From the sequence record OR427838.1: DNA of 64,000 nucleotides. One strand, 5' to 3'. Below are positions 3,975 through 59,821 of this stretch, piece by piece. Within the stretch, counting starts at the first letter, position 1, and every line of letters begins with the position of its first letter. Source of the DNA: Escherichia phage fDHCT2. The notes beneath the pieces are model-generated. The model ran no database searches. It worked only from the letters and a program-made list of their open reading frames with translations, and was not told where the DNA came from. The position numbers were made by a program, and so were the translations under genes.

Positions 3975-5658
<1,684 letters not shown>

Positions 5659-26161: not shown

Positions 26162-26238
26162 ATCAATTTCCTCAGTAGATTAATGTTTTGTTATCCAGTC
26201 AACGAGAACCATTATAACACGATTCTCGAGGTTGTAAA

Positions 26239-26583
26239 CTATTTTTGTAGCTGTTCTAAAATAAATCCGCTCGTATAAAAGGAAGCATTATAAACCTTAT
26301 TCAGTGGGTGCAAAGCACGTCCGTATGTATCACGCAATTCTTTGATAACATTTTCATAGCTCACATAGTAAGCACTACGATAGTCCGGGTCCATGCTCAT
26401 ACGGAATTTGATGAACCGATAAAAGCCTGTTTCCGGATCTTGAACGAAAACGAAATCCGCGCTTGCCATAGTTTTTGGATTTACGCCTGGAATCATACTT
26501 TGATTGAATGATACCGTTGCCTCCTGAAGGCTGAGTTGTTTAAAGAACATAACTTTAGAGTTACCAAAAAATACTTTAGACAT
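26239..26583 (-). CDS. Hypothetical protein (start refined to ATG 26583 with AAGGAAA SD)
   Basis: Track ORF 26239..26607. Confidence 0.5.
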   Translation of the reverse strand: MSKVFFGNSKVMFFKQLSLQEATVSFNQSMIPGVNPKTMASADFVFVQDPETGFYRFIKFRMSMDPDYRSAYYVSYENVIKELRDTYGRALHPLNKVYNASFYTSGFILEQLQK

Positions 26584-47327: not shown

Positions 47328-47621
47328 TTACTCACCTGTAACCTCTTTAACGATGTTTTTGTTATCGAAATTAGCGTCACAATACAAAACATAGTTGTAC
47401 TGCATAACACCTGTTGAAGCTAATTGGTCGGACACTTCTTTAACCATGTCAGGACGGTCACGTTTAGTGATGTTCATGATATCGGCATAAATCTGATGTT
47501 CAACATCAGTTTGGTCGGCAGTCATAGACCACTCACAAAGGTCTTTATCCAATCCGGCCGTTACTGGAGCTGTACCACATGATGCTACGGTAAGAATTGC
47601 TGCGATTAATAACTTTTTCAT
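47328..47621 (-). CDS. Exported protein/lipoprotein, 97 aa (size and position like T4 spackle)
   Basis: Signal peptide MKKLLIAAILTVASC; AGGAG SD; early promoter element upstream. Confidence 0.5.
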   Translation of the reverse strand: MKKLLIAAILTVASCGTAPVTAGLDKDLCEWSMTADQTDVEHQIYADIMNITKRDRPDMVKEVSDQLASTGVMQYNYVLYCDANFDNKNIVKEVTGE

Positions 47622-53454: not shown

Positions 53455-53987
53455 TTATTCACCTTATTTTCAATATATTCGTTCAGACGTTTTAATTCTA
53501 CCATATCAACATTAAGCAAATTATTATGGCCGTCATGATTTAAGATTTTAAACACGTTTTCAAAACATGTTTCGTATTGCTGGATAGTTAGGTTGAACTC
53601 ATCTTTGGTTAATTTAATAAGGTCATCTTCGAAGTCTTCATCTAATGGATTACGGGTTAAAATAACCTCGATAACGTTAAATTCGGATTTAAACCCTTTC
53701 CAATCTTCCAGTTCTACATAAGGGTCCATTTCACCACGAAGGAATCCTGAGTAAACAATATTACTTGGATAACCACGGTCAAGGATGTAAACGAAATTAG
53801 GGTCTAAAAACTTATACAACGTCTCGACTAAAGCCTTATCATTATCAGTTCCTAATGAAATACACTTGCCATTAATCTTTTTAGGAAAATCAATAAGGCG
53901 GTATTTCTTATTGGATAACAGATTTTTAATTAAAGTGGACTTCCCGGAATTATCTGGGCCGTCTATAACAATGATTTTTGGATTCAT
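53451..53987 (-). CDS. P-loop nucleotide/nucleoside kinase (thymidylate-kinase-like)
   Basis: 178 aa; N-terminal IVIDGPDNSGKSTL Walker A. Confidence 0.55.
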   Translation of the reverse strand: MNPKIIVIDGPDNSGKSTLIKNLLSNKKYRLIDFPKKINGKCISLGTDNDKALVETLYKFLDPNFVYILDRGYPSNIVYSGFLRGEMDPYVELEDWKGFKSEFNVIEVILTRNPLDEDFEDDLIKLTKDEFNLTIQQYETCFENVFKILNHDGHNNLLNVDMVELKRLNEYIENKVNK

Positions 53988-54367
53988 GGATGATAGGCCT
54001 TATAACTATCAAGAGTTCCTTCACGAACCAATTCTTTAAAGTGGTCTGGACGGATTGCTCGGTCATCGATGATAAAAGTATAACTCGGCTTGTGTGTAAG
54101 CAAATTGTGATATTTCAATCCAATTTTTTCAAGGTTCTTAACCAATGCAGGAACTACTTCAACCAAGATTCGACCTGGGCCACATGAAGTCATGCCACGG
54201 GCAGTGAATAATGTAATCTCGTACCCTTCATCATAAAGCTTATTAATCATGGACACCATTTCGGTGTCCGGTTTAAAGTTCTCATAATCACGGTCATGGT
54301 TCCAAATCGTGATTGTGTTATCGATATCAAAACATAAATGTGGTTTATTTTCTACTCGATGCGACAT
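53984..54367 (-). CDS. HAD-superfamily phosphatase
   Basis: HAD motif I FDIDNT near N-terminus; start refined to ATG 54367 (TAATG overlap); alternative start 54382. Confidence 0.55.
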   Translation of the reverse strand: MSHRVENKPHLCFDIDNTITIWNHDRDYENFKPDTEMVSMINKLYDEGYEITLFTARGMTSCGPGRILVEVVPALVKNLEKIGLKYHNLLTHKPSYTFIIDDRAIRPDHFKELVREGTLDSYKAYHP

Positions 54368-56040
54368 TAAATTTTCTTCCATTGTTTGTGGAGTTCAGTA
54401 GAACCTGTAGGTTTATATTTTACACCAGTTTCCTGGTCAAGCAAAACCCACTTATCAGGACAACGAGTAATAATTTGAGCCGTGATAGGGTCACGAACTT
54501 CATCGACAAATTCACCAGTAATAAGCTTACGCTTACGAGGATGCCGCTTCAGCAGCACACTCAGTTGGTACAAACCGTTATAATAAGCACCCAGAGCTTT
54601 CAGAGGGTTATTCTTAAAGTAACCTGCCAGCGCCATCCAAATAACAGCAATCCAGAGCTTGTGCTTAAATGTGCACATAGGAATATCGTCTAAAGGCATA
54701 ACCTTTTCAATATCAACGAATACACGAGTTCCATTACGAGTTAATCCACCCCATAGAGGGTCTGAGTTAAATTTGTCATAGCCATCGATAGAATAAAGCA
54801 CCTTAGCTTCATCATAAATCGCAGGGCCTTTAGAACTATTACCGAAATAACCACGTGGGTCGATGATTTTAATATCACCTTCGTCCGACAGCATAATATT
54901 ACTGTAGTGCGGGTCACCATGAATAAGTTGGTACGGTTCTTTATGTTCAGACAGAATTTCTAATGCATGGCGGAGAAGTTTTTCAGGGTCGCCTACTTTG
55001 AAATCGTTGACATGGGTAATGCCCTGTGGAGCAAAGCCTTCAATCAATCCGGCAATAGAAGCATTACGAATAAGGACCTTGTCCAATACTTCTTTCTTAA
55101 CATCGGAATACCATTGTTCATCGGACGGATTATCAATAGTTCCACCAAATGAACGTAATGCACTAATGACCTTATAAACCATGAGGACTTTAGTTTCTTT
55201 GGACATAAACCGGTAGGCATCTGCCATGGTCCGACCAAAGATACGTTCCATTTTAATGAATTCGCCTGGAGAAAAGTCTACAATGCTAGGAACGAATTCA
55301 GAATCAATAGAATTATACCAATTGATTTCTTTAGATTGAATTTCTTTACCTAAATCGTTAGTTGGTACTTTAATAGCCAGATTCTCAGTGAACTCTAATT
55401 TATTAAATTCACGGTTAATTTCAGAATCTTCATGGGCCTTAGCCAGTTTCAATTTGTCACCGACATCAACCACAAAGTCCAGCTTACGTTCAGTCAAATG
55501 GACCATCGAATCCAGGTTGTCTGCAAGGTCTTCGCCATAATTAGAACGGTCGAAACCTGTCCAATTAGCCACCTGATACAAACCAACCACACCACCGCCA
55601 GTACCAATTTCACGCAAGTACGGTTCTTCAAATGTAAAACGACAGTCGGTCCCATAGGTATAACAGTAGTCGTTATCCCACTCAACTTTATGACCTTCAG
55701 GAATAATATCACACCAGTTAAACAAGACATTATGCCCAATGATATCTTCAGCAATGCAATCGATAGCATGAGCTGAACCATTAGCAACATCAACGTTACG
55801 AATAGTGAATTTAGGCTTATCACCAGTAATCATGTTAATGGATTTGATATAGCCTTTAACGAGGTCGTTAAATTTGCTGTGAATAACCAGAATAATTTCA
55901 TCTGATTGGTTACTATACAAATCATACAAATGCTTTAATACCGTATGTTGTTTGTAGTTAACCAATACCTTCGGGATTTCGTTAGTAATTGGATACAACC
56001 GTGAGCCAAGACCCGCGCCTAAAATAACAACCTTTTTCAT
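54367..56040 (-). CDS. Bifunctional sugar-1-phosphate nucleotidyltransferase (N-terminal) / sugar kinase (C-terminal)
   Basis: Start refined to ATG 56040 (GAGGAA SD); N-terminus ILGAGLGSRLYPITNEIPKVLV; C-terminal HGDPHYSNIML...IKIIDPRG Brenner-type kinase motif. Confidence 0.6.
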   Translation of the reverse strand: MKKVVILGAGLGSRLYPITNEIPKVLVNYKQHTVLKHLYDLYSNQSDEIILVIHSKFNDLVKGYIKSINMITGDKPKFTIRNVDVANGSAHAIDCIAEDIIGHNVLFNWCDIIPEGHKVEWDNDYCYTYGTDCRFTFEEPYLREIGTGGGVVGLYQVANWTGFDRSNYGEDLADNLDSMVHLTERKLDFVVDVGDKLKLAKAHEDSEINREFNKLEFTENLAIKVPTNDLGKEIQSKEINWYNSIDSEFVPSIVDFSPGEFIKMERIFGRTMADAYRFMSKETKVLMVYKVISALRSFGGTIDNPSDEQWYSDVKKEVLDKVLIRNASIAGLIEGFAPQGITHVNDFKVGDPEKLLRHALEILSEHKEPYQLIHGDPHYSNIMLSDEGDIKIIDPRGYFGNSSKGPAIYDEAKVLYSIDGYDKFNSDPLWGGLTRNGTRVFVDIEKVMPLDDIPMCTFKHKLWIAVIWMALAGYFKNNPLKALGAYYNGLYQLSVLLKRHPRKRKLITGEFVDEVRDPITAQIITRCPDKWVLLDQETGVKYKPTGSTELHKQWKKI

Positions 56041-56100: not shown

Positions 56101-56601
56101 TTAAATCTTATCTTTACCGATTTCAATACACTGTTCTATTGCCGCCGGTACTTTGGTCTTGAGCTTATCGATTTGTTTCTTATAATCACGAGCTTTACCG
56201 AAGCTCTCGGTTTCGAGCATTTCGTAATAACGAGCCTCGTGGATGGAAATCTGTAGATTGATATGGTTTACGCACATCGCATACAGTTTCTGCTTTTTGT
56301 ACAAATCATCTTGACGCTTCATTTCTGCCTGGTGTTTGGCTAGTACCGCTTCACGCTTAGACTCTTGTTCACGTTGGAATTCGATTTCCCTTTGAGCATA
56401 TTTTGCACAGTTATTACCGCATTGATTATTAGCTCGGGTATACACAAGTCCGGAACCAGCACGGAATTTCATTTCGCCATCGAATTGTTTCTGTTCAGCT
56501 GCGATACGAGCTTTACCAACTTCATCAGCCGAAACTGCATCGCCATATTGGACCGCGCAACCTGATAGGAGCATACTCATTGCGATAATTAACTTTTTCA
56601 T
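56101..56601 (-). CDS. Putative lipoprotein
   Basis: 166 aa; signal peptide with lipobox LLSGC; GAGGA SD. Confidence 0.55.
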   Translation of the reverse strand: MKKLIIAMSMLLSGCAVQYGDAVSADEVGKARIAAEQKQFDGEMKFRAGSGLVYTRANNQCGNNCAKYAQREIEFQREQESKREAVLAKHQAEMKRQDDLYKKQKLYAMCVNHINLQISIHEARYYEMLETESFGKARDYKKQIDKLKTKVPAAIEQCIEIGKDKI

Positions 56602-56608
56602 AATATCC

Positions 56609-56746
56609 TCAATTAAAACAGTTATACTTAATTTGTGCTATAAGAATAATCCATCCAATGATGAGTGTCGGAATCATTGGTGGAATTGCCACTGCCCAAT
56701 AAACGGTAAAGGCAGCCATTATAAGAAATAAAATAATTATCTTCAT
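56609..56746 (-). CDS. Putative 45-aa membrane peptide (not in ORF track)
   Basis: ATGA overlap with imm-like gene stop; two hydrophobic segments. Confidence 0.3.
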   Translation of the reverse strand: MKIIILFLIMAAFTVYWAVAIPPMIPTLIIGWIILIAQIKYNCFN

Positions 56747-56979
56747 TGTTTAACGATAATGATTTGTGCGTTTGATTTACGTTCAGCGACGATAGCCCAG
56801 ATTAAAGCCACTACCCAACCAATCATCGTCCACCCTAACAGGAGATTAAGGAAGAAAATTCCTACATTACTACGAGTGCCTCGCAGAAGGGCTAAAATCC
56901 ATGGTAAAAAGTAACCGATGAACATAATAACCAGAGAACCAAATCCTAAAACACCAGCACTAACGATTAAAGCTTCCAT
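56743..56979 (-). CDS. imm: Superinfection immunity protein, Imm-like
   Basis: 78 aa, two TM; LRGTRSN...LLGWTMIGWVVALIWA; T4 imm position upstream of 43. Confidence 0.55.
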   Translation of the reverse strand: MEALIVSAGVLGFGSLVIMFIGYFLPWILALLRGTRSNVGIFFLNLLLGWTMIGWVVALIWAIVAERKSNAQIIIVKQ

Positions 56980-56995
56980 TGTAATTTCCTCATGT

Positions 56996-57039
56996 AGTTG
57001 ATAGGAAGGATACTACCACGTTCCTTGTGGTATGTAAAC
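56996..57039 (-). promoter_or_regulatory. Early-type promoter element upstream of imm-like gene
   Basis: GTTTAC-N18-TAGTAT-CCTTCCTATCAACTACATGAGGAA. Confidence 0.5.
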
Positions 57040-57041
57040 AC

Positions 57042-59753
57042 TTAAAAGTCGAACATATCAAATAATGTTGCTTTTTTCTCGTAGTCGATTTTAGCAGACT
57101 CAGTAAAACCAGTCAGAGGCTTGATAAAGGTCTTTTGGAACAGTACGTTGTAGTCCATCCAACGGAGGACTTGGTCACGAATCTGAATCGGAAGTTCAAT
57201 ACCTGACGGCCACGCCATACAAGCTTCACCAAAAGGGTTGCCTTCTTTAAGCGGCAGCACATATACCTTTTCACCATCAACGATACGAGGCATGGTCAAA
57301 TCACCTGCAGAAGCACGCATGTAAGCTAAGCAACCTTTGATGTGATACGGACATTTAGAACCAGGGAAACCGCCTTCATTATATTTCTCGATGTTGTTAG
57401 CACTGGATACTGCAGCAATGCTTACATAGTTTAGTTCGTTAAATTCCTTATTAAACTGTTTGAAATACTCTTGCAAAGAGGCCTCGCCTTCTTGAAGCAT
57501 ACGACGGATACATTCTTTCAGTGCTTTCTGAACTGCTTTAGGTGTACTTGATTTCTGGGTTTCGAGGCCCATGATTTTCAAGTGTGGTTCGGCATAACGA
57601 GTACCTTCCATGTCCCAAACGTTCAGTGCATAACGTTTCTTGCCTGTCCAGAATCCACCAAGACCTTTAGAACCAAGTGGAGGACCAGCGATAGCTTCTC
57701 GGTCCATGAACATCAAGTGCTGTTTATTGTTCATGTATTCGCACATCTCACGGAAGCCTGCATCAATAGCCGGTTCCATACGTTCACGTGCAAATTTATC
57801 TAAGAAATCAACCCAGTGGTTAGTATCACGGAATTTATCTTCGCCTACTTTATTGATGATTGCGTCAGCCTTAACATAAATGGAGTCAGTATCACCATAG
57901 AGCACGAACTTCTGGTTTTCAGTCTTGCACACACCATTCAGATATTCGTTAACCTTACGTTCAATCCATTGGAGGGCCATTTGACCAAACAATGTGATTG
58001 CAGTCGCGTTCCTGAGGTCATAGTAACGGAACCATACGTTACCAAGTGCACCATAAAGGGAGTTGATAAGCAACTTACGGTTAATCTGAGCAGTCATACC
58101 TGCGACTTCAGTACGTTCGGCTTTGAACAACATTTCTTTTAAAGAAGATGCTGACAATTTTTTAATCTGAGCTTTGATTTCGTCAGAGAAGTCGAAACGA
58201 TAATCGATATCCAGTGGGCTATCAACAGACGGATTAGGATTTTCTAATGCTTCCTTAATTAACTCACCATTACGTTGAGCTGCAAGCATATAACCTTTAT
58301 GTTCTTTACGCTGTAAGAACACCTTCGTGATTTCTGTAGGAATCACGCCATCACGGTCTTTATAGTACATCATGCCGTTAGGAGAGCAACTGTAGGTGTC
58401 GCTAGGACGCGGAGCAGTTCCGGCAATATATTCATGTATCGGTGCGTTAGCGAATGTCCCTGCGATGGTCTCTGGGCTTATATTCACTTGTCGAATGATA
58501 CTCGGGTACAGAGATGTAAGGTCGAAACTCATTACATATTTGTACGCGTTAGGAATAGGTTCCTTAACGAAAGCACCTGGATAAGGTTGAACCGCATGCG
58601 ATTTGGCCTGAGGAATAACTTTACCCTGTTCTTTAAGGCTATTAAAGATAATAGCGTCCCAAGTCTTAATTGGACTGAACACCGACTGAATCTGCATCTT
58701 GGCATAGTAACCCATGTCCAGACTAAGAAGAATGAACTGGCGTTTCATATCAATCTGCACAACACGATATACGTCGATAATGTTATAGGAAATATATCGT
58801 TGGTGGTTCGTCTCACGTAACTTGGAGATAGGACCATCATATTTCAACTTACCTACTTTCAATTCATATTCAGAAACATAATCCAGAGAATAAGAAGGCT
58901 GGTTGGTAAAGCTGAATTTTTTATAAAGGTCGATATAATCCAGAACAGAGATACCGAACAGTGTAATAATTTCACGAACACCGTACATATTCTCGATAAC
59001 TTTAACACGAGTCTTACGATGCGGGCTTAATCGCTTAGCAGTGTTCTCACCAAACAGATTTTTCAGACGGTTATAAACGTATGGCACGTCAAATGATTCA
59101 ACGTTCCATCCAGTCAAAATCACAGGAGTTTTCTGTTGCCAGAAATTCAGATACTCAAGCATCATTTCTTCTTCAGAATTAAACGGAAGATAAACGATTT
59201 TGTCAATGATTTCTTGTGGAACTTCGTCACCACCTTCGTCTTGGAGTTTCTCAGCGATTTTAATCGACCACTCTTCGACCGTACCATAAGGTGAAACTAA
59301 AAGGTCAAATACATAGAATTTATCATCAATCGAGTCGTAGTGAGTAATGGCATCGATAGGATGTTTAGCCTGAGCAGGTTCAGGGAATCCATCAGGGGAT
59401 GTTACCTCGATGTCGAAGTTAGCAATACGAATCTTGGAAGAATCATACTTGATTTCTTTACGATAGGTATCAGACAAATAGGCTAATTTATAGTCGTCCA
59501 TACCAAGGGCTTCGAGACCCATATCGTCCATGCGCTTCATCCACTGAGAAGCATCGCGCATTGAATTGAATTCTTTCTTAACACAGCCCTTACCGTAGAT
59601 GTCAATATATTTTACGGCTTGCTCTGGGTTAGCATGCATAAACATTGTAGGCTTGTATGGAACTTCACGACTACGTTCGTTACCATTTTTATCGATGTAA
59701 CGTTCGAGAATATTATCACCGATTTGTTCGACTGTCAAATAGAATTCTTGCAT
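57042..59753 (-). CDS. 43: DNA polymerase gp43 (family B)
   Basis: Start refined to ATG 59753 (MQEFYLTVEQIG); 903 aa; exo motifs FDIEV, polymerase motif YGDTDS; very similar to remembered RB69 gp43. Confidence 0.95.
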   Translation of the reverse strand: MQEFYLTVEQIGDNILERYIDKNGNERSREVPYKPTMFMHANPEQAVKYIDIYGKGCVKKEFNSMRDASQWMKRMDDMGLEALGMDDYKLAYLSDTYRKEIKYDSSKIRIANFDIEVTSPDGFPEPAQAKHPIDAITHYDSIDDKFYVFDLLVSPYGTVEEWSIKIAEKLQDEGGDEVPQEIIDKIVYLPFNSEEEMMLEYLNFWQQKTPVILTGWNVESFDVPYVYNRLKNLFGENTAKRLSPHRKTRVKVIENMYGVREIITLFGISVLDYIDLYKKFSFTNQPSYSLDYVSEYELKVGKLKYDGPISKLRETNHQRYISYNIIDVYRVVQIDMKRQFILLSLDMGYYAKMQIQSVFSPIKTWDAIIFNSLKEQGKVIPQAKSHAVQPYPGAFVKEPIPNAYKYVMSFDLTSLYPSIIRQVNISPETIAGTFANAPIHEYIAGTAPRPSDTYSCSPNGMMYYKDRDGVIPTEITKVFLQRKEHKGYMLAAQRNGELIKEALENPNPSVDSPLDIDYRFDFSDEIKAQIKKLSASSLKEMLFKAERTEVAGMTAQINRKLLINSLYGALGNVWFRYYDLRNATAITLFGQMALQWIERKVNEYLNGVCKTENQKFVLYGDTDSIYVKADAIINKVGEDKFRDTNHWVDFLDKFARERMEPAIDAGFREMCEYMNNKQHLMFMDREAIAGPPLGSKGLGGFWTGKKRYALNVWDMEGTRYAEPHLKIMGLETQKSSTPKAVQKALKECIRRMLQEGEASLQEYFKQFNKEFNELNYVSIAAVSSANNIEKYNEGGFPGSKCPYHIKGCLAYMRASAGDLTMPRIVDGEKVYVLPLKEGNPFGEACMAWPSGIELPIQIRDQVLRWMDYNVLFQKTFIKPLTGFTESAKIDYEKKATLFDMFDF

Positions 59754-59821
59754 TTCATTTCCTTTATAGACGAGTGATTGTCTTTTGTTTGTTGATGAAT
59801 CATTATACTCCAAAAAGGGAC

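Follow-up and report, generated by a model that had tools for sequence, protein, structure and literature searches.

T4 Imm is an inner-membrane protein that keeps the DNA of superinfecting T-even phages from entering the cell, and T4 Spackle (Sp) inhibits the gp5 tail lysozyme in the periplasm. Beyond the T-even phages, a known receptor-blocking mechanism is that of T5 Llp acting on FhuA. In T4, the region following the DNA polymerase gene reads 43, imm.1, imm, an unannotated 49-aa ORF and 42. The first of the small genes, imm.1 (T4p046), lies directly upstream of imm and encodes a 125-aa lipoprotein with an LAGC lipobox and Cys15. It is listed as being of "unknown function", and its knockdown was scored "Not Fit" (PMC11879866 supplement); this is a neutral outcome, yet the assay would not detect exclusion. 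Our search of the literature on imm.1, DUF5481 and T4p046 found no functional study. We also observe that the "immunity protein" label attached to imm.1 in many records derives from proximity alone.

Here we compare with this arrangement the corresponding locus of Escherichia phage fDHCT2 (OR427838.1), a Dhakavirus and hence a T4-like coliphage of the JS98/Bp7 type. The analysed stretch of 64,000 nucleotides, referred to below as the window, is 97-98% identical at the nucleotide level to 51 Dhakavirus-type records, which annotate the locus as two "hypothetical" products, "immunity to superinfection" and "DNA polymerase". The three small proteins of interest are 95-100% identical to proteins deposited from dozens of Dhakavirus genomes. 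We suggest that the locus is probably the form taken in Dhakavirus by a set of small early genes for envelope proteins that is conserved downstream of gene 43, as in T4. The relevant features are the following.

57042..59753, minus strand: gene 43 (DNA polymerase), upstream neighbour of imm in the direction of transcription.
57010..57038, minus strand: candidate sigma-70/T4-early-type promoter, TTTACA-17 nt-TAGTAT, a consensus match only.
56743..56979, minus strand: imm, 78 aa, homologue of the T4 superinfection immunity protein Imm.
56609..56746, minus strand: 45-aa hydrophobic micro-protein, phrog_3610, E 1.4e-21.
56101..56601, minus strand: 166-aa lipoprotein precursor, phrog_1754, E 6.9e-52.
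56557..56601, minus strand: lipoprotein signal peptide (residues 1-14) and predicted lipidated Cys15.
47621..47331: homologue of sp (Spackle), 74% identical to Sp of phage p000v.

Three minus-strand ORFs fill positions 56101-56979 (ORF scan and sequence). The original prediction had placed here an Imm-like protein with two transmembrane segments, a 45-aa membrane peptide and a 166-aa lipoprotein with an LLSGC lipobox, and all three are present. It erred in putting them upstream of gene 43, which runs from 59753 to 57042 on the minus strand; in the direction of transcription the order is 43, imm, 45-aa ORF, 166-aa lipoprotein, and the small genes are downstream. The gene 43 start is the ATG at 59753 (MQEFYL...), as judged from the match in length and N-terminus to the annotated gp43 of Bp7, JS98 and VR5, and the TTG at 59813 given in the ORF list is wrong. 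The claim of overlapping junctions holds for imm and the peptide, which share an ATGA (4 nt), and fails for the peptide and the lipoprotein, where the TGA stop is followed by 7 nt and then by the lipoprotein ATG. The GAGGA Shine-Dalgarno sequence of the lipoprotein gene nevertheless overlaps the peptide stop, and another GAGGA lies 8 nt 5' of the imm ATG. The ATGA overlap and the Shine-Dalgarno sequence over the peptide stop suggest coupled translation, and the three genes would be transcribed with the early replication genes. The candidate promoter sits inside the 62 nt that separate gene 43 from imm, but a scan of the region returned 11 promoter-like matches against 11.0 expected from shuffled sequences; such matches being as frequent as in shuffles, we treat it as a lead and not as a finding. 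A terminator scan of the same region found none. Compared with other Dhakavirus genomes, all three genes are under purifying selection (dN/dS 0.03 to about 0.3), and this, together with homologues in several genera, indicates that none of the three is a chance ORF. The next gene but one in the window is a homologue of RB69 ORF53_52c.

The first gene is imm. Its product matches the Pfam family Imm_superinfect (PF14373) with E 5e-18 and 65.1 bits, against a cut-off of 27.9, and phrog_1039 with E 3e-32, and its entire length (residues 1-78) aligns with T4 Imm at 43% identity. Hydropathy analysis delimits two hydrophobic stretches, residues 2-33 and 39-67. On these sequence grounds the 78-aa protein is assigned to the Imm family as an inner-membrane protein with two predicted transmembrane segments, and by homology to T4 Imm it would insert into the inner membrane and block DNA entry of superinfecting T-even phages. 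T4 Imm likewise has two hydrophobic segments and is encoded downstream of gene 43. The fDHCT2 protein is five residues shorter and otherwise nothing material differs; the gene follows gene 43 directly, whereas T4 imm comes after imm.1.

The 45-aa peptide is hydrophobic across residues 1-41, and its dN/dS against other Dhakavirus genomes is 0.05-0.32. In an alignment of seven phages from six genera, nine positions are invariant (Y16, P22, M24, P26, T27, I29, W32, Q38 and C43), and an eighth copy, unannotated, occurs in phage CIP9. In T4, the unannotated 49-aa ORF between imm and 42 (5377..5228 of T4 locus L006) matches phrog_3610 with E 1.2e-25 and aligns with the 45-aa peptide; it also overlaps the imm stop by ATGA, an arrangement common to T4, VR7 and Dhakavirus. 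Further counterparts are "42.1" in VR7 and ORF054c in RB69, the latter annotated as "similar to T4 42-imm intercistronic region". The 45-aa ORF therefore encodes a conserved membrane micro-protein, a homologue of the product of the T4 imm-42 ORF. The two are alike in length (45-49 aa), in hydrophobicity and in the motif Y...P-x-M-(I/V)-P-T-x-I...W...Q...C, and differ in what follows, which is the lipoprotein gene here and gene 42 in T4. We considered and rejected a chance ORF, given conservation over six genera and dN/dS below 0.35, and also a cleavable signal peptide (cut between WAVA and IP), as the residues at -3 and -1 vary among homologues.

The genomic company kept by the peptide raises another reading, in which it, and possibly the lipoprotein, serves DNA hypermodification, for instance as a membrane anchor or regulator of a sugar-nucleotide/arabinosyl-hmC pathway. 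In RB69, PM2, PEi20, CHI14, CIP9 and Q7622 the peptide gene lies between arabinose-5-phosphate isomerase and nucleotidyltransferase/kinase genes with no imm nearby; in T4 its ORF immediately precedes gene 42; and the RB69 ORF53_52c homologue is close by in the window. In VR7, however, imm, the peptide and the lipoprotein gene occur without modification genes downstream, where there is only uvsX, and the peptide is retained in T4 even though glucosyl-hmC is made there by another pathway. No enzymatic role is evident for a hydrophobic 45-mer, and its gene shares an ATGA with imm in T4, VR7 and Dhakavirus. We regard a function in hypermodification as highly unlikely.

The third gene encodes a precursor beginning MKKLIIAMSMLLSGC, with a single hydrophobic stretch (residues 3-18) and the features recognised by signal peptidase II: an MKK n-region, an LIIAMSML h-region and the lipobox L12-S13-G14-C15 (LLSGC), encoded at 56568..56557 and conforming to the pattern [LVI][ASTVI][GAS]C. 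The 166-aa ORF is accordingly classed, from its sequence, as encoding a predicted lipoprotein precursor, and it shares its PHROG with T4 Imm.1. Residue +2 is Ala, so that, with no Lol-avoidance Asp, sorting to the outer membrane is predicted; Asp at +2 was absent from all family members examined. The lipobox Cys is kept in nearly all homologues, but a few (P0034, P0043 and P0044) have an ordinary signal peptide and no lipobox, from which it follows that the family can do without a lipid anchor. The mature protein of 152 aa has further Cys residues at positions 61, 65, 110 and 158; in family alignments C15 and C158 are invariant and C110 nearly so. Its dN/dS relative to other Dhakavirus genomes is 0.03-0.09. 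AlphaFold2 (AF2) predicts helices at residues 64-131, 134-149 and 151-162, with pLDDT above 90 at about residues 100-160 and below 50 in the N-terminal half, and it is only as predicted helix that the coiled-coil-like body described earlier was recovered. We envisage that the protein exposes in the periplasm a flexible N-terminal tether carrying the motif C-x-x-Q-G-x-V-V-x-x-x-E/D-V-G-K, a small beta-hairpin (G-S/T-G-L-x-Y-x-R...QCGNNC) and a helical domain whose probable clamp would be a C110-C158 disulfide.

Searches for relatives of this protein by PDB sequence, NCBIfam and Foldseek against the PDB and BFVD gave no informative match, the PDB matches being generic helical hairpins (E > 2). 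We dismissed a Pfam match to MTBP_mid (E 0.008, below cut-off), which we attribute to the noise of a compositionally biased helix. The single large match in the exhaustive profile search, P0038 (1550 aa, nine GTGLTYTPxxNYCGxDSFTY repeats), matches only the beta-hairpin motif, residues 32-69, which we take as a likeness of motif with Ig-like/cadherin-like repeats rather than as homology. We likewise rejected a role as an o-spanin (Rz1-like): the protein is not proline-rich, its gene lies in an early replication region, and it has no i-spanin partner. Typical o-spanins are smaller than this 166-aa lipoprotein, and the T4 spanins are encoded elsewhere, at pseT.3/pseT.2.

How the lipoprotein relates to T4 Imm.1 requires more care. 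T4 Imm.1 scores E 6.1e-43 against phrog_1754, the family also matched by the fDHCT2 lipoprotein, and the CRISPRi-ART authors independently place T4 imm.1 in the same PHROG (PMC11879866 supplement). The homology search thus led to a T4 counterpart listed as of "unknown function", and not to an orthologue with an unrelated role. T4 Imm.1 also matches Pfam DUF5481 (PF17578) with 239 bits, whereas the window lipoprotein had no match to it at E up to 0.1 and is therefore filed only in the wider phrog_1754 grouping. Direct comparison is faint. BLASTP between the two proteins gives E 7.8. An HMM built from the non-T4 mature sequences scores T4-group members weakly, at 4-16 bits, with three of the six above the 99th percentile of 500 shuffles and with both conserved Cys in register in the alignment. 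An hhalign comparison of the two groups gives a probability of 24-28% (P about 7e-4), driven by a 14-15-residue N-terminal motif.

These scores leave room for the view that the lipoprotein is unrelated to Imm.1 and represents an analogous cassette replacement, perhaps with a different function, at a hot spot next to gene 43. Consistent with this, a profile search of 1.8 billion representatives did not retrieve T4-type proteins, Foldseek searches started from each AF2 model failed to reach the other family (the models being of low confidence, pLDDT 68 and 61), the mature lengths differ (152 vs 111 residues), and the region is mosaic. Yet both proteins score strongly against one PHROG, derived from remote-homology clustering; they have in common the mature N-terminal motif CxxQGxVVxxx(D/E)VGK as well as the two registered Cys; in both AF2 models a tether is followed by a small beta element and then by C-terminal helices; and the two types are mutually exclusive in distribution at the same position. 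In keeping with the last point, no DUF5481-type gene occurs elsewhere in the 64-kb window, which argues that the two lipoprotein types substitute for each other. We consider an unrelated cassette unlikely. The putative homology to T4 imm.1 accordingly rests on the shared PHROG, the position, the lipobox and the aligned cysteines. Both proteins have Cys15 and the N-terminal mature motif, and each is encoded by the sole such gene in its locus, beside imm; the fDHCT2 protein is 41 residues longer, and its gene comes after imm and the peptide and not before imm.

Gene order across the T4-like phages places the locus in a broader setting. In at least eight Tevenvirinae genera, the lipoprotein gene follows gene 43 immediately or nearly so. 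The order is 43-imm-42.1-lipoprotein in VR7 (Gaprivervirus), 43-lipoprotein-imm-42 in Melville (Gelderlandvirus) and Citrobacter phage Ursula, and 43-lipoprotein-API-peptide-nucleotidyltransferase/kinase in PM2, PEi20, CHI14, CIP9 and Q7622, while Mosigvirus p000v has dmd-imm.1-like lipoprotein-imm-spackle. Against this background, the original prediction that Dhakavirus carries an expanded exclusion module, with imm joined by two envelope partners that T4 lacks, appears extremely unlikely. The three genes are indeed contiguous and tightly spaced, and a patch divergent from phage VR5 (56950-56351, 72-79% identity, with flanks at about 94%) takes in imm, the peptide gene and the lipoprotein's N-terminal half, a pattern resembling a joint exchange. 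But T4 has at this locus both imm.1 (LAGC, phrog_1754) and the 49-aa phrog_3610 ORF, so that all three kinds of gene are present there, as they are in Gaprivervirus; the lipoprotein and imm also occur together in Gelderlandvirus, Ursula and Mosigvirus; and only the gene order is specific to Dhakavirus. What survives of the proposal is the idea of an envelope module, which is reasonable for three envelope-targeted proteins beside a genuine imm homologue; the expansion relative to T4 does not.

Our best inference for the lipoprotein is a periplasmic accessory protein, anchored in the outer membrane and made early in infection. Its most likely role, which we advance tentatively and at less than even confidence, is that of a non-essential envelope accessory that protects the infected cell or excludes superinfecting phages at the outer membrane or periplasm. 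In Mosigvirus the lipoprotein and imm have been relocated together beside spackle, a hint that they may have a role in common. In contrast, PEi20 (Kanagawavirus) has the lipoprotein and the peptide, and neither imm nor sp was found in the 9-34.6 kb examined, so a functional link to Imm is dispensable; the lipoprotein is not obligately coupled to Imm, and a possible superinfection-exclusion role for the lipoprotein and peptide is weakened by genomes that carry both without imm nearby. Gene order in the Tevenvirinae is moreover broadly conserved by descent, which makes adjacency alone weak evidence. None of the three matched a PADLOC model at E up to 1.

A receptor-masking mode of action, in which the lipoprotein would act like T5 Llp or Cor on the periplasmic face of a receptor, block adsorption or the triggering of ejection and shield progeny from debris, accords with a small lipoprotein predicted to reach the outer membrane and encoded in an early region beside imm, with its grouping with imm and sp in Mosigvirus, and with its fast divergence (49% identity between the window and VR7, compared with 78% for gp43), as might be expected for variable receptors. 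The only match to Cor, however, is to phrog_1119 at E 0.015 and covers the signal peptide (residues 1-18); there is no Llp/Cor likeness in sequence or fold, PDB sequence and fold searches having returned no significant match; and the neutral T4 imm.1 knockdown also counts against it. To our knowledge, classic T4 work attributed exclusion to Imm and Sp only, which is a further argument against masking, and we hold it to be distinctly unlikely. Returning to the envelope accessory, a bolder version, possible but on balance doubtful, would make the Imm.1-family lipoprotein, perhaps with the peptide, a third and periplasmic component of T-even exclusion or envelope protection alongside Imm and Spackle, with divergence between genera reflecting phage or receptor specificity. 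If the lipoprotein does contribute to exclusion, it would be an added component in the classic T-even system (Imm, Sp).

The three genes are ordinary and already annotated, with existing PHROG families and T4 counterparts. The comparison does show that a conserved membrane ORF of 49 aa, lying between imm and 42, is absent from the T4 RefSeq record, and that Imm.1-type lipoproteins are a widespread early-region feature of the Tevenvirinae, one that in one lineage has moved with imm beside spackle. Set against known systems, the lipoprotein resembles T5 Llp and phi80/T1 Cor in being a small phage lipoprotein of the early region with predicted outer-membrane location, but its body is larger and mostly helical, with no detectable relationship in sequence or fold. 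It is like T4 Spackle in being an early protein of the periplasm (by prediction, in the case of the lipoprotein), and in Mosigvirus the genes for the imm.1-like lipoprotein, imm and sp lie side by side; the two families are nonetheless unrelated, and the window carries its own sp homologue. T4 itself holds the same three kinds of gene in another order, and we therefore view the Dhakavirus locus as a conserved, already catalogued gene set.

All three open reading frames predicted for 56101-56979 are present on the minus strand, as confirmed by an ORF scan and the sequence itself, and the original prediction was correct as an observation save for small errors. It had placed the trio upstream of gene 43; since gene 43 truly begins at ATG 59753 and ends at 57042, the trio lies downstream of it by transcription. 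It had also described overlapping junctions, and an ATGA overlap indeed joins imm and the peptide gene, whereas 7 nt separate the peptide stop from the lipoprotein start, with a GAGGA Shine-Dalgarno overlapping that stop. A mechanical ORF list starts gene 43 too far upstream (TTG 59813, versus ATG 59753 in all annotated homologues) and starts the nucleotidyltransferase/kinase gene at ATG 56070, where all annotated homologues use ATG 56040.

Window genes of the trio and its surroundings
56979..56743, minus: imm, 78 aa (65 bits to Pfam Imm_superinfect, cut-off 27.9)
56746..56609, minus: peptide (45-mer), 45 aa (phrog_3610, E 1.4e-21)
56601..56101, minus: lipoprotein, 166 aa (phrog_1754, E 6.9e-52)
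from ATG 56040 (probable start), minus: sugar-1-P nucleotidyltransferase plus kinase-like protein, 557 aa, RB69 ORF53_52c homologue
54382..53984, minus: HAD-type 'capsule biosynthesis phosphatase'
47331-47621, minus: spackle (sp) homologue, 74% identity to Mosigvirus p000v Sp

In nucleotide comparison, 55900-57200 matches 51 phage records, 47 of them at 96-98% identity; they comprise JS98, JS10, Bp7, QL01, WG01, IME08 and relatives, all of the genus Dhakavirus (Tevenvirinae), and annotate the stretch as 'hypothetical protein (x2) | immunity to superinfection | DNA polymerase'. Deposited, annotated copies of the trio genes are hence already numerous. The lipoprotein gene is followed immediately, at 53984-56040 (minus), by a probable arabinosyl-hydroxymethylcytosine cluster, which continues downstream by homology with Bp7 (L001), where the phosphatase is followed by a dNMP kinase-like gene and a gene 42 homologue. 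RB69 ORF53_52c has been proposed to act in UDP-arabinose synthesis (Thomas et al., 2018; PMC6024577). The sp homologue lies about 9 kb from imm, so the two classic T4 exclusion genes are both present in this phage, each at its own locus.

The reading of the first gene as an Imm-like protein with two transmembrane segments holds: besides its Pfam match, hydropathy gives two hydrophobic segments, and identity to T4 Imm is 43%. T4 Imm blocks DNA entry by superinfecting T-even phages, and by homology window Imm should act likewise at the inner membrane. In the 45-mer, residues 1-41 are hydrophobic by hydropathy. The predicted 166-aa lipoprotein with an LLSGC lipobox is also borne out at the sequence level, opening MKKLIIAMSMLLSGC with a textbook lipobox (Cys15, Ala at +2) and a signal peptide that is its sole hydrophobic stretch. 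In an AlphaFold2 model built from a 19-sequence alignment, the N-terminal half is of low confidence and includes a small beta-hairpin at 42-56, followed by confident helices at 64-131, 134-149 and 151-162 (pLDDT >90 for about residues 100-160), so that the body is modelled as helical.

For what the lipoprotein does, the evidence bears on location only. The protein carries a Sec/SPase II signal, and since none of the family members examined has Asp at +2, the predicted anchor site is the outer membrane's inner leaflet; the conserved cysteines are consistent with periplasmic disulfides. In a few relatives among the matched database proteins (P0034, P0043, P0044) an ordinary signal peptide replaces the lipobox, and thus periplasmic location is the family constant and the lipid anchor is not. 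A 1550-aa metagenomic protein, P0038, has at residues about 400-1300 nine tandem repeats of ...GGGTGLTYTPAANYCGSDSFTY... that match family profile positions 32-69 (G-S/T-G-L-x-Y-T-R-x-x-N-Q-C-G-x-N-C), which probably reflects just a shared beta-hairpin motif.

The RefSeq order in T4 is 43 – imm.1 – imm – (153-bp gap) – 42. The imm.1 translation opens MKIAILVIALGLAGCVAQGPVVNQSDVGK..., a lipoprotein precursor with its lipobox Cys at position 15, and matches phrog_1754 (6e-43), the family of the window lipoprotein. The CRISPRi-ART supplement independently assigns imm.1 to phrog_1754, of unknown function, and in laboratory knockdown reports no fitness effect for imm.1 and scores imm as 'Fit' (PMC11879866). 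The gap holds a 49-aa ORF, MKSKIIAALLLILMIIISIYYSVTVPLMIPTIILGWSLLLLQVKYECIN, unannotated in RefSeq (5377..5228, minus, in L006, our T4 locus from NC_000866; record about 26227-26376). It has an ATGA overlap with the imm stop, scores 1e-25 against phrog_3610 and can be aligned to the 45-mer (invariant Y16, P22, M24, P26, T27, I29, W32, Q38 and C43), and is a conserved ORF of membrane type. VR7 annotation names such an ORF '42.1', and RB69 ORF054c is annotated 'similar to T4 42-imm intercistronic region'; homologues are likewise unannotated in VR5, CIP9 and many Dhakavirus records. T4 therefore holds the same three gene kinds, and the proposal of a module expanded relative to T4 imm was wrong.

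Profile matches strongly indicate co-membership of the two lipoproteins in phrog_1754. Because that model includes both subgroups, homology was tested independently on mature sequences, signal peptides removed. BLASTP against T4 Imm.1 was not significant (E 7.8), and Pfam DUF5481, which scores T4 Imm.1 at 239 bits, did not match the window lipoprotein. An HMM of 22, then 44, non-T4 members gave T4-group proteins 4-16 bits, above the 99th percentile of 500 composition-preserving shuffles for P0043, P0044 and T4 Imm.1. Between the subgroups hhalign returned a probability of 24-28% (P about 7e-4), with the match centred on CxxQGxVVxxx(D/E)VGK at the mature N terminus; once the alignment threshold was relaxed, window C110/C158 fell in register with T4 C89/C119. 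Exhaustive HMMER over 1.8 billion representatives found 24 proteins, all but one of 89-192 aa and phage-like, with no T4-type protein among them, and Foldseek with either AlphaFold2 model (weak, mean pLDDT 68 and 61) retrieved its own subgroup only. The window has no DUF5481-type gene, and hence the two types substitute at one position. We consider homology likely and replacement by an analogous cassette unlikely. Under either reading, a lipoprotein gene sits next to imm in T4.

Gene order in T4-like phages
Tequatrovirus (T4): 43 – imm.1 – imm – 49-aa ORF – 42
Dhakavirus (window): 43 – imm – peptide – lipoprotein – arabinosylation genes
Gaprivervirus VR7: 43 – imm – 42.1 – lipoprotein – uvsX
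Gelderlandvirus Melville, Citrobacter phage Ursula: 43 – lipoprotein – imm – 42
Mosugukvirus PM2, Kanagawavirus PEi20/CIP9/Q7622, Winklervirus CHI14: 43 – lipoprotein – arabinose-5-P isomerase – peptide – nucleotidyltransferase/kinase
Mosigvirus RB69, gene-43 locus: 43 – isomerase – peptide (ORF054c) – ORF53_52c
Mosigvirus p000v, second locus (L011 2995-4030): dmd – imm.1-like lipoprotein – imm – spackle, contiguous

By tblastn, 127 phage records carry the window-type lipoprotein, every one of them a T4-like phage of enterobacteria; the T4 type occurs in 657, which come from Tequatrovirus and also, with identity of about 32%, from Mosigvirus. A lipoprotein gene is conserved in the position immediately following gene 43, and it tends somewhat to accompany imm: in Mosigvirus, the lone informative relocation, both shifted together, leaving the 42.1-type peptide at the gene 43 locus (RB69 ORF054c, L014 2348-2458). 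Neither lipoprotein nor peptide needs an adjacent imm, which is absent within about 3 kb in PM2, PEi20, CIP9, Q7622 and CHI14; neither imm nor sp is detectable in PEi20 at 9-34.6 kb. The peptide is linked to DNA-modification genes as often as to imm, and its association with sugar-nucleotide genes in other lineages makes a tie to those genes a rival to one with imm. Annotations often drift: the labels given to T4-type imm.1 include 'immunity protein', 'Phage immunity', 'iduronate sulfatase' and 'membrane protein', and some window-type records read 'capsid and scaffold protein' or 'recombination endonuclease subunit-containing protein', none of which was backed by our searches.

Nei-Gojobori dN/dS against Bp7, JS98 and VR5 (imm 0-0.08, peptide 0.05-0.32, lipoprotein 0.03-0.09) identifies all three as real genes under purifying selection. 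The lipoprotein changes faster than its neighbours, with 49% identity to VR7 against 51% for the peptide, 73% for Imm and 78% for gp43. Against VR5 (L012), nucleotide identity drops to 72-79% in a 600-bp patch (56950-56351) between flanks of about 94%; the patch spans imm, the peptide and just the N-terminal half of the lipoprotein, and dS in it is about 0.8-1.0 versus 0.32 in gp43 and in the 557-aa gene. It has the look of a recombinational mosaic, and such behaviour is typical of accessory genes facing the host or competitors.

An accessory periplasmic or outer-membrane function, protecting the infected cell or excluding competitors, can be suggested only tentatively for the lipoprotein, and we doubt that it is a third exclusion factor alongside Imm and Sp. 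Receptor masking by an Llp-type mechanism, one specific version of the accessory role, seems improbable. In PHROG, PDB, fold and PADLOC searches the lipoprotein resembled neither Cor, T5 Llp and Spackle nor any of the PADLOC defence models. The trio genes are known and conserved, if uncharacterised, in the early region of Tevenvirinae, and the set's sole difference from the T4 set is the position of the lipoprotein gene.
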